A stretch of 64,000 nt of DNA from Eledone cirrhosa (Eukaryota), in NCBI GenBank assembly GCA_964016885.1, contig OZ024742.1, forward strand, positions 255,502,001 to 255,566,000, read 5' to 3'. The translations under genes and the position numbers were made by a program. The notes beneath the pieces were generated by a model. That model did not search any database. It was not told where the DNA came from and saw only the letters and a list, made by a program, of their open reading frames with translations. The stretch's first letter is position 1; the number at the start of each line of letters is the position of its first letter. Shown in pieces: positions 8,879 to 64,000 of the stretch.

Positions 8879-8998
8879 TATTGGTAAATGGAAAAGAAAA
8901 TGGTGACAAATTTTTCACTGTGAACAATTTGTCAGCATTTTCTTTTCCACTTAGCAATATATCATAACTTGTGTGTTACACCTCTATTCTTTTAAATA
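8879..8998. mobile_element. Mini fold-back PLE end (~40-bp arms plus tail), same family as 10657-11783
   Basis: TTGGTAAATGGAAAAGAAAATG..CAAATT inverted to AATTTGTCAGCATTTTCTTTTCCACTTAGCAA; tail is the reverse complement of 10657-10690; (TA)n flanks. Confidence 0.7.
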
Positions 8999-9024
8999 TA
9001 TATATATATATATATATATATATA

Positions 9025-10638
9025 TGAAAAAAGTTTGTCCTTCATCAGTGATCTTCCAACTATCATAGGCATTTCATCGCTTTAAAGACCATATACCTCC
9101 GGTTGGTGCGAGCAACGGCTAAAAAAAGTCGTTGGGACACGTAAATAAAGGGGACGCGAGGGTAAACAAACAAAATGGTGAGGCAACAGAAAGTGAGGAA
9201 GAAGGAGACAAGTCCCAGATTTCTATGAATTTAAGTTCGGTGAAATCGTGAACGAGAGAATAAAGACCATCAAACCTGGTTGAAATGTGAGCAAGGAAGG
9301 AATTTCGCACAGGTCTAACGGGAGGAAGAAGGGGTCTGGTCTGCGAATTCGGTAAACATAAGTTCTGTGAAATCGTAGACGAGAGAGAAAAAAATTCCGA
9401 CCAGCTGGGCAGAGAATGTGAGAGAAACGAGTTACTCACAGGTCAAACGGGAAGAAAGAGGAGGAGGAGGAGAGGTAGTGACAGAGAATGAGTGAGTGAA
9501 GGGTGAGGTGAGTAAGAGGCTAACAGAGAGAGAGAGACTGCTAGAAAGGGTAAAGATACATAGAGCGAAAAAGACGGTGTAGCAGCAGAGGAAAAAATAT
9601 GTGTAAATATGATCTCTCGTCTACGATTTCACAGAACTTATGTTTACCGAATTCGCAGACCAGACCCCTTCTTCCTCCCGTTAGATCTGTGCGAAATTCC
9701 TTCCTTGCTCACATTTCAACCAGGTTTGATGGTCTTTATTCTCTCGTTCAAGATTTCACCGAACTTAAATTCATAGAAATCTGGGACTTGTCTCCTTCTT
9801 CCTCACTTTCTGTTGCCTCACCATTTTGTTTGTTTACCCTCGCGTCCCCTTTATTTACGTGTCCCAACGACTTTTTTAGCCGTTGCTCGCACCAACCGGA
9901 GGTATATGGTCTTTAAAGCGATGAAATGCCTATGATAGTTGGAAGATCACTGATGAAGGATAAACTTTTTTCATATGTAACCCATTTGCAACTCCGCAGC
10001 GCCCTTATTATCATATTTACACATATTTTTTCCTCTGCTGCTACACCGTCTTTTTCGTTCTATGTATCTTTACCCTTTCTAGCAGTCTCTCTCTCTGTTA
10101 GCCTCTTCCTCACCTCACCCTTCACTCACTCATTCTCTGTCACTACCTCTCCTCCTCCTCCTCTTTCTTCCCGTTTGACCTGTGAGTAACTCTTTTCTCT
10201 CACATTCTCGGCCAAGCTGGTCGGAATTTTTTTTCTCTCTCATCTACGATTTCACAGAACTTATGTTTACCGAATTCGCAGACCAGACCCCTTCTTCCTC
10301 CCGTTAGACCTGTGCGAAATTCCTTCCTTGCTCACATTTCAACCAGGTTTGATGGTCTTTATTCTCTCGTTCACGATTTCACCGAACTTAAATTCATAGA
10401 AATCTGGGACTTGTCTCCTTCTTCCTCACTTTCTGTTGCCTCACCATTTTGTTTGTTTACCCTCGCGTCCCCTTTATTTACGTGTCCCAACGACTTTTTT
10501 TAGCCGTTGCTCGCACCAACCGGAGGTATATGGTCTTTAAAGCGATGAAATGCCTATGATAGTTGGAAGATCACTGATGAAGGACAACCTTTTTTCATAT
10601 GTAACCCATTTGCAACTCCGCAGTGCCCTTATTATCAT
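9025..10638. mobile_element. Non-coding PLE/retrozyme-like element: 624-bp unit present as an inverted copy plus ~1.6 direct tandem copies
   Basis: 9025-9613 is the reverse complement of ~10011-10600; GTAACCCATTTGC recurs at 9977 and 10601 (period 624); (TA)n flanks. Confidence 0.75.
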
Positions 10639-10656
10639 ATATATATATATATATAT

Positions 10657-11783
10657 AGTTAAAAGAATAGAGGTGTAACACACTAGTTATTATATATTGG
10701 TAAACGGAATAGAAAATGCTGACAAATTGTTCACAGTTGAAAAATGGTTTAATTAGGAATAAAAGAGTATTAGTGATTGTATGGGTTAGTATTCAGTTGT
10801 GGTTTTAAGTTTTTAAGTTTTTACCGGTTGCGCATTTCTAAATGCTTTTCAAAAATAATTTTGAGATAGAGTGTCCGTGCTGTTTGCTCTGATCTGATTA
10901 GTTTTGGGAATTCTACCTGTTTTTATGTTAAAAAAATGGCTCCAGCGTTATTTTTGTGTTGCAAAAATGCTTGTGGTCAAAACAATTTTGATTGGTCGGT
11001 AGAGGTCATGTGAATGTAAAAAGTTGATTTTGCGCCAAGACTGTTTTTATGTTAAAATGTTAGAAAAGTGGCTCCAGCAAAAATTATGGTCAAAACAATT
11101 TTGATTGGTCGGTAGAGGTCATGTGGATAAAAAATGTGGATATATGCACATATATTTTTTTGTATTGCACCATAGAGCATGTGTGTTTACGTGTGTCATT
11201 GTGTTTATATGTGGGTAGAGATGTGTGCTGGTGTAGGTATGTATGTTGACGTGTGTATGTTGTGGGTTCGTCTTAGGGAGAAGTGTTTAGACGGGGTCCG
11301 TATTTGACTAAATACACACTCCCACACATACACACACAAAACCAATTTTTTATCCACATGACCTCTACCGACCAATCAAAATTGTTTTGACCATAATTTT
11401 TGCTGGAGCCACTTTTCTAACATTTTAACATAAAAACAGTCTTGGCGCAAAATCAACTTTTTACATTCACATGACCTCTACCGACCAATCAAAATTGTTT
11501 TGACCACAAGCATTTTTGCAACACAAAAATAACGCTGGAGCCATTTTTTTAACATAAAAACAGGTAGAATTCCCAAAACTAATCAGATCAGAGCAAACAG
11601 CACGGACACTCTATCTCAAAATTATTTTTGAAAAGCATTTAGAAATGCGCAACCGGTAAAAACTTAAAAACTTAAAACCACAACTGAATACTAACCCATA
11701 CAATCACTAATACTCTTTTATTCCTAATTAAACCATTTTTCAACTGTGAACAATTTGTCTGCATTTTCTATTCCGTTTACCAA
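10657..11783. mobile_element. Fold-back non-coding element: ~440-bp inverted arms, ~200-bp spacer, tail on the left
   Basis: ~10695-11135 inverted at ~11345-11783; ~118-bp internal duplication in each arm; (TA)n flanks. Confidence 0.8.
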
Positions 11784-61334: not shown

Positions 61335-61447
61335 TTGTTGTTGTTGTTGTTGTTGTTGTTGTTGTTGTTGTTGTTGTTGTTGTTGTTGTTGTTGTTGTTG
61401 TTGTTGTTGTTCTTCTTCTTCTTCTTCTTCTTCTTCTTCTTCTTCTT
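61335..61447. repeat. (TTG)n(TTC)n microsatellite
   Basis: Direct reading. Confidence 0.95.
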
Positions 61448-62109
61448 ACTTATTCATAGGTGGGTCGTGGGGCAGAATCCTCAGATAAGCTTAGTAGAAT
61501 GTCTTACCAAATCACGGCCCAACCTAATATTTCGATACTCTCTATATCTAAAACAACCCACCGCATGTATTTCTTATAATATCTCAAACAGACGGCTAGC
61601 AAAACATTCTGACTAAATGACATATATCTAAATATATATATATAAATATATATATATAAATATATATAGGAAGATATATATCTGATCGAATGTGAATGTG
61701 TGCGTGTGTGTGTGTGTGTGTGTGTGTGTGTGTGTGTGTGTGTGTGTGTGTGTGTGTGTGTGTGTGTGTGTGTGTGTGTGTGTGTGTGTGTGTGTGTGTG
61801 TGTGTGTGTGCGTGCGCGTGCGTATGTGTGTTTCTGTTTATGTGTGACGATGGCGGAGATTGTTGGTTTGGTGTGAAGGCGATTCAGATAAAACGAATCG
61901 TTTATGGAATATAACATGTCATGAGGTCGTGGAAGTTATCCAGTTTGGCTGCGTGAAATAAATGCTAGAGGCAGTTTATAGGAAAAGGTAGAGAGATATT
62001 GAAATATTCAAATATAATATATAAAAAAATAAAAAAATAAAATACTGAACAATGAAGAAGAAGTAGTTATAAGTTGAATTATAGGAAGAGGGAGATAGTA
62101 AAGCAGAAT

Positions 62110-62296
62110 ACGGATTGGAAGTATTGGTAGAGGGTCGGACGCTATGCTTTGACGCATAGAGTTACGGCCCTTGCTATTCTGAGTTCGAATCTCGCCGAGG
62201 TTAACTTTGCCTTTCATCCTTACGGGGTCGATAAAATAAAGTACAAGTAATATACTGGATAATTACTGGCCTTGTGCCAAAAAGTACAAACAATTA
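62110..62296 (+). mobile_element. Meta-domain tRNA-SINE copy
   Basis: Family match. Confidence 0.88.
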
Positions 62297-62398
62297 TATA
62301 TACATATATATATATAAAATATGTATATATATATATATCCATATATATATATATATATATATATATATATATATATATATATATATATATATATATAT

Positions 62399-64000
62399 AG
62401 GAACAAGTATGACCTCGACGGCAGAGCTCAAGCCGTTTCGACGGCTAATTCTGGACTAAATAAGAATTTTTAGCCAGGTAAATAAATAGCCGAACTTCTC
62501 AGGGGGTAATTCCATTTATGGGAAGAAAGTAATTGTCAAAAGGATTGGTCAATAATTTGTTGTAAAGACCTATGATTCTATCATGGCATTTAGTGGAAGG
62601 TAGGGGTAGTTGAGCTTGCTGGTAGAATAAAGAGGGAGTGGGTGAACCCAGTCAAGTGTTGAAAGTGAAATCTATACAGCAGATTCTAAGGATAGTGTAA
62701 AAATGAGGAAATAAATATATAAAAAATATAAAAAACAATTTCTGGTTACTACTCCATCCCCACAATCACCAAATCTCTCATTGGTATTGCTAAGCTATAG
62801 AAAAGTTTAATAGGTGGAGAAGAATCCTAAATACAGATTGTAGTGAAAGAATTTTATAAAGCCATCTTTACAGACAATTTTATAAAGACATCTTTACACT
62901 GATATAGTTAGTAGTAATCAGCCAATGCTATCTTACAATGACAGGTTAATAAATTGAGGACAAACATACTAAAAAACTAATACGAAATATTAATTCAGAA
63001 AGCTAATACATAAATACTAATACAAGAATACTAATGCAAAAATACCACGAACAATTTTATAAAGCCATCTTTACAGGGGATCTAACGCCACTACTATAGT
63101 TAGTAGTAATCAGCCAATGCTATCTTACAATGACAGGTTAATAGGTTGAGGACAAACATACTAAAAAACTAATACGAAATATTAATTCAGAATACTAATA
63201 CATAAATACTAATACAAGAATACTAATGCAAAAATGCCACTATGAAATTTAGAAATCACGGAAATGAAGCAGCAACCAGAAAGAAAGCAATTATCTGGGG
63301 TCTAACACATCTGCCATAAAAAGCGTAATCGGCCAATTCTATCTTAAAATTGGGGGTACTGAGGCTACAGAGGACCGATGAACTGCATCGGGGTGGGCGA
63401 AAAGGCCGCCTTGGACTTTGCCGAAACACTCGCGCCCATCACCGACCAGGAAAGAAATATCATCCTCCACGACAGGAAGACAGTCCTACTTTTAAAACAA
63501 CTCCAAATGGACAAATATAGCTTTTGACTCCCCCTTTGACGTTAGTATGGGCGCGGCGGATTCGGCTGAGGTCTCAGATCTTATAGGATTATTCCTACTA
63601 TTTAAACTCACCAAAATGTTTCCTGCATTCGGTGGTGGATTGTACCGTGATGATGGGCTCCTTACCCTCAAAGGGTACAACCCCAGTAGTACAGACCGGG
63701 TCCGTAATTAATCAGCTTCTTCCGCGACTGGGGATTTAAAATAACCCTACAAACGTCCCTAACCCGAGTAAACTTCCTGGACGTTCCCTTAACCTCGATA
63801 ATGATCTGTACTACCCATAGAGGAAACCAAACGACAACCTGCATTATATCCACCGCCGGTCGAACCATCCTAGAAACATCACCAATTACCTGGTTAAAAA
63901 CATCCCCCTCCGAATATCTCGCTTGTCCGCTAATGAGCAGATATTCGATGAACTTATTACAACCAGGCCCTCAAGCGGAGTGGCTTCCGGGAGGAAATAT
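62399..64000. mobile_element. Second Naiad-type PLE: inverted 3' arm (62399 to ~63400) followed by a + strand 5'-truncated, frameshifted RT that runs off the window
   Basis: ALDFAE..IILHDRKT, FDVSMGAADSAEVSDLIG, GGLYRDDGL, NFLDV, SNHP; the left end matches the mini elements; ~190-bp duplication at 62850-63250. Confidence 0.85.
62412..62507 (-). ncRNA. Hammerhead with extended stems II and III; first box variant CTGAGAA
   Basis: Reverse complement: ACCCC-CTGAGAA-GTTCGGCTA..TAGCCGTC-GAAA-CGGC..GCCG-TC-GAGGT. Confidence 0.6.

Follow-up and report, generated by a model that had tools for sequence, protein, structure and literature searches.

Tailed palindromes of Penelope-like elements in the Eledone cirrhosa genome and a predicted pair of hairpins at their two start sites

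We analysed a stretch of 64,000 nucleotides of Eledone cirrhosa DNA (GCA_964016885.1, contig OZ024742.1, positions 255,502,001 to 255,566,000 of the forward strand; hereafter the window), part of a microsatellite-rich genome of 3.0 Gb in 1,796 contigs, for its insertions of Penelope-like elements (PLEs), which form the sister group of telomerase reverse transcriptases (RTs). The original prediction for this DNA placed inverted arms with a one-sided tail at eleven sites, and a left arm only at 62399. Comparison of the window with itself, together with reading of the letters, showed inverted arms at every listed site but 62399, and nine of the eleven (8879, 9025, 10657, 26550, 26741, 27971, 34961, 41768 and, loosely, 47832) were tailed palindromes with relatives elsewhere. 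The site at 47616 was symmetric and tail-less, and no family was found for 39305. The confirmed palindromes adjoined (TA)n, and their tail was one-sided and of a length fixed for each family. An inverted 5'-truncated copy, a one-sided tail of 30-40 bp and a bias to (TA)n are described for PLE insertions in the parts considered of Craig 2021 (PMC8557442, Fig. 2) and Arkhipova 2013 (PMC3846280), so that inverted pseudo-long terminal repeats with an asymmetric tail had been correctly named as a known PLE layout.

The family E insertion begins with an 89-nt tail (27971-28059, minus strand), which equals the leader between the inner and the outer start site, upstream of the open reading frame (ORF). 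This tail contains hairpin 1, of the form ACTC-stem-TA-GAGT (28028-28052, minus strand), the predicted RNA signal for the inner start site. The tailed, shorter left arm follows (28060-30393, minus strand), and then the tail-less right arm (30394-33238, plus strand), which is 511 bp longer and contains a 5'-truncated RT-endonuclease (EN) ORF of Hydra type to 31909 and then the 3' untranslated region, with a hammerhead-like core at about 33141-33195. The two arms are identical over 2,334 bp.

The other insertions differ in size and family. Family A is represented by a mini-palindrome (8879-8995, plus strand) with arms of about 40 bp and the tail at the right (about 8963-8995), and by a larger palindrome (10659-11782) with the tail at 10659-10697 on the minus strand and arms at 10698-11135 and 11345-11782, the spacer of which extends to the last codons of a GIY-YIG ORF known from relatives. 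The family B insertion (9026-10636) has a tail-less left arm (9026-9613, minus strand) and a right arm (9613-10012 plus 10010-10636) of 1.6 tandem units, each of which ends in a tail of about 40 nt. Family C formed a short palindrome at 26549-26732, with about 80 nt of tail at the left, and another at 41769-41967 (plus strand), with arms of 59 bp, a tail of 80 nt and hairpin 1 at about 41895-41918. The family D insertion (26743-27314) has arms of about 255 bp, a spacer of 14 nt and its tail at 27263-27314; this tail is 52 nt long, against about 75 nt in relatives, with an internal deletion of about 23 nt within hairpin 1. Family F (34960-35901) combines a long tail-less arm on the minus strand, carrying the end of the EN and a hammerhead ribozyme (HHR) core, with a right arm of 62 bp and a tail of 60 nt (35842-35901). 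Family I (47709-47962) is an old, degenerate palindrome (47836-47962) with arms 71% alike and a left tail of about 125 nt that holds an ACTC...GAGT stem; few full relatives were found, and relatives carry an HHR-like core. As predicted, only a left arm was found at 62399: a tail-less family C arm on the minus strand and then a decayed Hydra RT on the plus strand (62400-64000), with no inverted partner in the following 20 kb. Two more degenerate family C relatives with tails, absent from the original list, were seen at 27334-27494 and 12377-12523. At 8800-11860, at 26500-33360 and in R088, elements of different families share (TA)n tracts and adjoin one another there, which suggests that insertions cluster in hot spots.

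Two listed sites stand apart. Site G (39307-39778) has arms at 39396-39489 and 39686-39778 about a (TA)n centre and a left extension of 89 nt, and its family membership is unproven: a genome search, in which common words are skipped, matched the window alone, and no relative was seen among the fetched loci either. Site H (47615-47707) is a tail-less, TIR-like hairpin outside the finding, TIR standing for terminal inverted repeat. It has the features of a miniature inverted-repeat transposable element (MITE), namely symmetric TIRs, a short fixed size of about 90 bp and TA flanks, and presumably resembles mariner/MADE1. The hairpin was seen in most of the 15 loci shown, some of them one-armed; the supposed tail was absent from the 14 other loci shown, and the sequence at its right is the tail of 47832. 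Hallmarks of DNA transposons had been named beforehand as evidence against the prediction; this one listed site is MITE-like, and such a reading is largely refuted for families A-F.

Motif analysis separated the coding families into two groups. The family E monomer is 3,896 bp long with an open frame of 821 aa, and the protein search gave at least 150 matches at 99-100% identity over the probed 170 aa, and 40,819 first-look candidates. Its product contains the linker CNCRIKNKC (CxCx5C), HSDKT, one Cys between GIY and YIG, CNLC and CLH, and lacks CCHH. Families C (read in L286/L287) and f3 carry the same motif set, and f4, of which part was seen, is of Hydra type by its N-terminus; an N-terminal RW is present, with RWK replaced by RWT in E and by RWR in C and f4. 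By these defining motifs, families C, E, f3 and f4 are assigned to the Hydra clade. Features in common with the Hydra PLEs, in the parts of Craig 2021 considered, are the C-terminal EN without CCHH, the CxCx5C linker, DKT, the (TA)n target and, in E, a putative HHR-like core; the 27 families given there are mostly cnidarian and shorter than 3 kb, whereas many families occur here and the E monomer reaches 3.9 kb. By motif reading, E and C have RT and C-terminal GIY-YIG EN in a single ORF. Pfam gave no match for the truncated family E ORF of the window. A CTGATGA...GAAA core lies 45 nt before the end of family E and the same pattern found none in C, and the Rfam scan of the window returned no hammerhead, only microRNA-type noise from microsatellites. 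In families A and F the EN is C-terminal and contains CCHH, and the linker is of the form CX4CX2C, with CDRPNCGIC and LTCSGC in A (L280), and with CIDKKCIIC and two Cys between GIY and YIG in F; their C-terminal EN, CCHH and CX2-5CxxC linker mark them as Neptune/Nematis type. The families had been announced as Naiad-like, Nematis-like and non-coding. The last two descriptions hold for A and F and for B and D, and C and E proved to be Hydra; the Naiad domain order, an N-terminal GIY-YIG EN with a CxC link to the RT, was not found, the EN being C-terminal in A, C, E and F.

No ORF was present in families B and D or at site G. The monomers of B (about 624 bp) and D (about 510 bp) are non-coding, occur in tandem and have ends of PLE type, in which they are like the animal non-LTR retrozymes in the parts of bioRxiv 10.64898/2026.07.22.740005 considered. 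They differ from these in forming tailed palindromes and in that no complete type I hammerhead was found: the retrozyme hammerhead test gave no match in B, and D has merely 5 nt between the core halves. The 10-nt core of B had no match in the parts of the Craig 2021 supplement examined. As to the history of the coding families, L286 6043-8411 is a chimera in which a family C leader and N-terminus run into a family f3 ORF. Family E (window 29900-30950) is present, mostly at 95-99% identity, in sequencing runs whose labels name at least four different organisms, and may thus be shared among relatives or recently transferred. No RNA run was among the sequencing runs listed for family E, and the search for DNA around the homologous protein in metagenomes confirmed nothing.

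The tails measured 33-41 nt in A (by ATAT assignment), about 40 nt in B, about 80 nt in C, about 75 nt in D, 89 nt in E, 60 nt in F and about 125 nt in I. Overall they ranged from 33 to about 135 nt, most being 55-100 nt, and only A and B had tails of the canonical 30-40 bp. Their ends are fixed within families, as the original prediction required: pattern measurement gave 89 nt at 18/18 ends in family E, and the tails of C were 81-82 nt long, with ends ragged by up to about 11 nt in f9. Read-through copies in A, B, C, D, E, F, f3 and f4 showed that the tail is the leader from the 3' end of the element to the ORF of the next monomer. Both ends of the tail fall on TA/AT letters, and target-site duplications (TSDs) are unreadable inside (TA)n. 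Canonical PLE insertions, as described in Craig 2021 and Arkhipova 2013, are likewise head-to-head inverted copies with partial tandems, a tail often at one end, (TA)n and no discernible TSD. The insertions described here differ in the length of the tails and in a one-sidedness that is nearly obligate instead of optional.

This one-sidedness was measured on palindromes found with tail-free queries, and 34 of 38 carried a single tail (18/19 in E, 10/12 in C and 6/7 in B; pooled p=3e-7 against the 50% ceiling expected if each arm picked its end independently). In almost every palindrome the arms end at different sites, one at the inner and its partner at the outer. Sets selected by their tails agreed, with one-sided and two-sided counts of 12 and 1 in A, 17 and 0 in F, 13 and 0 in D, and 20 and 0 in f4, the other loci being single-armed within the fetched flank; f9 gave 10 one-sided loci and one mis-paired locus. 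Among the single-arm insertions of B, 17/19 ended at the outer site and 2/19 were tail-less. The partner arms use the inner site and are therefore not drawn from the same distribution. One tail per palindrome is thus nearly obligate.

A blind scan of 12 arbitrary 50-kb regions, two of which were dropped as satellite-dominated, gave 46 one-sided and 7 symmetric calls over the remaining 500 kb, a few of them false, with 0-11 one-sided calls per region. Together with 10 calls of the window they fell into 30 clusters. The density was about one palindrome per 11 kb, so that the predicted hairpin every few kb was too high. One false positive of the tail scan was an internally deleted DNA transposon at 40632-41523, with 103-bp TIRs and TA flanks, which we take to be mariner-like. 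The scanner also reported f3 tails of 28-40 nt, an artefact of an internal TATA; the error was exposed because a second hairpin was found there, and the real tail is about 90 nt.

In the Hydra-type families a hairpin accompanies the start sites. The motif RCYC-N-T(N)-GAGY was found within 20 nt of the inner site in 31/55 one-sided blind-scan tails, against a mean of 0.8 and a maximum of 6 in shuffles. Its inner part usually forms a second, family-variable stem and leaves a 2-nt bulge beginning with T. A second copy lies 6-14 nt past the outer end in read-through copies of C, D, E, f3, f5 and f12. For f4 and f9 the outer hairpin was predicted before the loci were inspected, and it was present in the sole f4 read-through copy among 30. 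In seven families (C, D, E, f3, f4, f5 and f12), each of the two start sites is thus followed, after about 6-14 nt, by a bulged stem of the form RCTC-N-TN-GAGY. The first pair of the hairpin appears to covary: over 21 family-sites, read from listings and not independent of one another, it was A-T in 8, G-C in 11, A-C in 2 and G-T in none (Fisher p=2e-4), and subfamilies of C show both forms. In published consensus sequences from sea cucumber and coral (Craig 2021, File S7), read by eye, two such hairpins stand 5' of the ORF in Hydra-1_Ajap and one at the 3' end in Hydra-2_Ajap and Hydra-2_Amil. The motif is absent from families A, B and F, yet these have the same palindrome geometry, and ATATCG is common to the two sites of F. 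The hairpin likely marks where each of two RTs would start. No copy that terminates at the outer site contains hairpin 2, which can therefore act only on the template. A tailed full-length arm would then call for a template, tandem or circular, with a junction 3' of the ORF.

We put at roughly 70% the probability that both strands of the (TA)n target are nicked, that each nicked strand starts its cDNA at a UA/AU directly 5' of one hairpin, and that the cDNA ends are joined head to head. The GIY-YIG nuclease would nick both target strands, and each 3'-OH would pair with the UA/AU immediately 5' of a hairpin. An RT dimer with two active sites, each binding one hairpin, would force the one-sidedness. 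Joining of the two cDNA 3' ends, by microhomology of 1-5 nt or through a short insert, and then fill-in would follow. More speculatively, both cDNAs may be copied from one RNA, and multimer arrays may come from a circular or tandem template. Two cDNA priming events at offset RNA positions on opposite strands, as originally proposed, are supported by the tallies made here and were largely shown in vitro (Frangieh 2024, PMC11167929). In that work on Poseidon PAc of Anolis, two internal RT start sites bracket the tail, and both strands are nicked and extended. The AT-rich target, the predicted dimer and the two starts around the tail, read here from sequence alone, are common to both systems. The start region of Poseidon is one AC-rich stem-loop within the ORF, whereas two bulged stems in a non-coding leader are found here, and the two sites are not linked to two inverted arms in the parts of Frangieh 2024 examined. 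No match was found in its supplement text, and the supplementary figures may bear on this.

The arms and junctions of the palindromes bear on this reading. Both arms look like first strands. The arms of one family E locus differed by at most two changes in 9/15 loci, compared with 2/420 between-locus pairs; they were nearest each other in 13/15 loci, with one tie and one exception, and subfamily indels were shared by the arms. Microhomology was determined by exact walk, in place of an earlier BLAST-based figure, and averaged 2.4 nt in seven clean non-palindromic junctions, against 0.76 nt simulated. Family E occurs at 90% identity or more in contigs from four runs; none of these contigs spans the 30393 junction, which is uninformative. 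Of some 30 5' ends of E arms (L168-L182), about 11 cluster 646-750 nt past the start of the tail, often for both arms of a locus; this cluster may reflect a strong RT stop or an RNA 5' end inside the ORF. In short copies of family C (41769, 26625 and blind-scan hits), many arms are 45-65 bp long and break off within one shared structured region, which lies upstream of the inner site.

Several observations weigh against priming at paired hairpins on both strands. Isolated short hairpins fold weakly (-0.9 to about -5 kcal/mol), which makes the structure a prediction; RNAfold left out the bulge in some cases, and for one f12 hairpin the outer stem did not form. The motif is disrupted after the f38 tail and, read by eye, only partial in Hydra-1_Obim, Hydra-1_Crog and Hydra-1_Amil, and f9 had no read-through copy among 30 and hence no outer site to inspect. 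Loci L173 and L059/L060 are tail-less on both arms, and L012, L022 and L073 are tailed on both; the loci came from best-hit lists that favour young copies, and most E loci were picked for long arms. Exact microhomology (1-5 nt) was present at only 8 of 19 family E junctions, with 4-13 unassigned letters at 8 others and 3 unresolved. The identity of arms within a locus fits one template and could equally reflect gene conversion or one dominant source locus. In the parts of Frangieh 2024 considered, the Poseidon start sites are used without strand difference, which by itself would not force one-sidedness. Among the exceptional loci, L173 (445-9458) is a perfect 4.5-kb family E palindrome, tail-less on both sides, whose 5' ends are identical and whose centre is AATT; it is possibly a secondary rearrangement.

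Twin priming is known from L1, where both target strands prime cDNA and the products are joined by microhomology. In L1 the inverted part is adjacent to the rest of the RNA copy without overlapping it, and the internal site is random, while both arms described here are copies of one 3' region, started at two fixed sites. The two subunits might each use a separate RNA, with the asymmetry set by the protein. Two RTs would then not be needed on the same strand, and unequal arm lengths and joining by microhomology agree with this. The shared subfamily indels and the closeness of arms within loci speak against it, nothing obvious would keep both subunits off the same site, and we consider it unlikely, if less so than the explanations that follow.

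The main alternative is fold-back self-priming, in which a single tail-primed cDNA would fold back and serve as its own template, the new copy being cut back or resolved at the inner site by the endonuclease. Arkhipova 2013 (PMC3846280) put forward self-priming and Craig 2021 (PMC8557442) EN-mediated resolution, in the parts considered. Obligate one-sidedness and identical arms would come free, and 31/55 blind-scan calls were single-alignment palindromes with little spacer. The tailed arm was the longer one in 13/18 E insertions. Fold-back predicts this in every case, and the tail-less arm was longer in 5/18, the window included, by 16 nt to more than 1 kb, as well as in F at 34961. Tail-less single-arm insertions occur too (the 2/19 in B), and fold-back does not account for a hairpin that recurs at the same distance behind the two sites, so that it seems quite improbable. 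That the palindromes belong to DNA transposons as MITEs, arose as fold-backs in the assembly or are independent insertions lying together by chance, as the MITE-like site 47616, the TIR pair caught by the scan at 40632 and the lack of a public contig across the 30393 junction might suggest, is very improbable and largely refuted for families A-F, since arm and spacer lengths vary by copy while the outer ends stay fixed, RT-EN ORFs lie inside the arms, the arms of older copies are 2-15% diverged, and many unrelated families, on many chromosomes, show this geometry.

Priming at paired hairpins can be extended to a more tentative proposal, that Hydra-clade PLEs are built to make palindromes. A single RNA would carry twice a bulged hairpin whose conservation would extend from cnidarians to echinoderms, and two RT-EN subunits would dock on the two copies one tail-length apart. 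Each subunit would prime off a different nicked (TA)n strand, so that the tail would act as a ruler measuring the spacing of the hairpins. A ribozyme-processed circular template would restore both hairpins behind every ORF. By extrapolation, such a process might have produced on the order of 2 x 10^5 palindromes in the 3-Gb genome.

Other repeats were also found in the window. A family of about 190 bp resembling short interspersed elements has about ten copies (4095, 6119, 25692, 36547, 37320, 42719-43184, 51677, 59233 and 62112), one head-to-head pair of which makes another inverted repeat. A 972-aa open frame at 1-2919 (plus strand) belongs to a non-LTR retrotransposon, with the end of an endonuclease, an RT and a C-terminal Cys motif, and more RT fragments lie at 14336-15034 and 60728-61102. 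A (CACCAA)n array of about 280 copies occupies 57047-58717.

The layout and the two internal RT start sites were already known, and the constraint of one-sidedness and the paired hairpin are the additions. No description of a paired hairpin or of obligate asymmetry was found in the literature searched, which covered few subscription papers, and paired hairpins are not mentioned in the main text of Craig 2021 as far as it was considered. How PLEs form inverted repeats and tails is an open question there (PMC8557442), and Frangieh 2024 (PMC11167929) explains the tail and leaves the later steps open, in the parts considered. The near-obligate asymmetry ties the two start sites to the two arms. 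As a compact and mutable cis-element, the paired hairpin would allow start sites and tail length to be set at will, and family E, young and with intact 821-aa frames, is a ready substrate. For the genome of E. cirrhosa, a palindrome about every 11 kb bears on genome stability and on repeat annotation, the latter because short copies resemble MITEs, and the palindromes may, more speculatively, supply double-stranded RNA.

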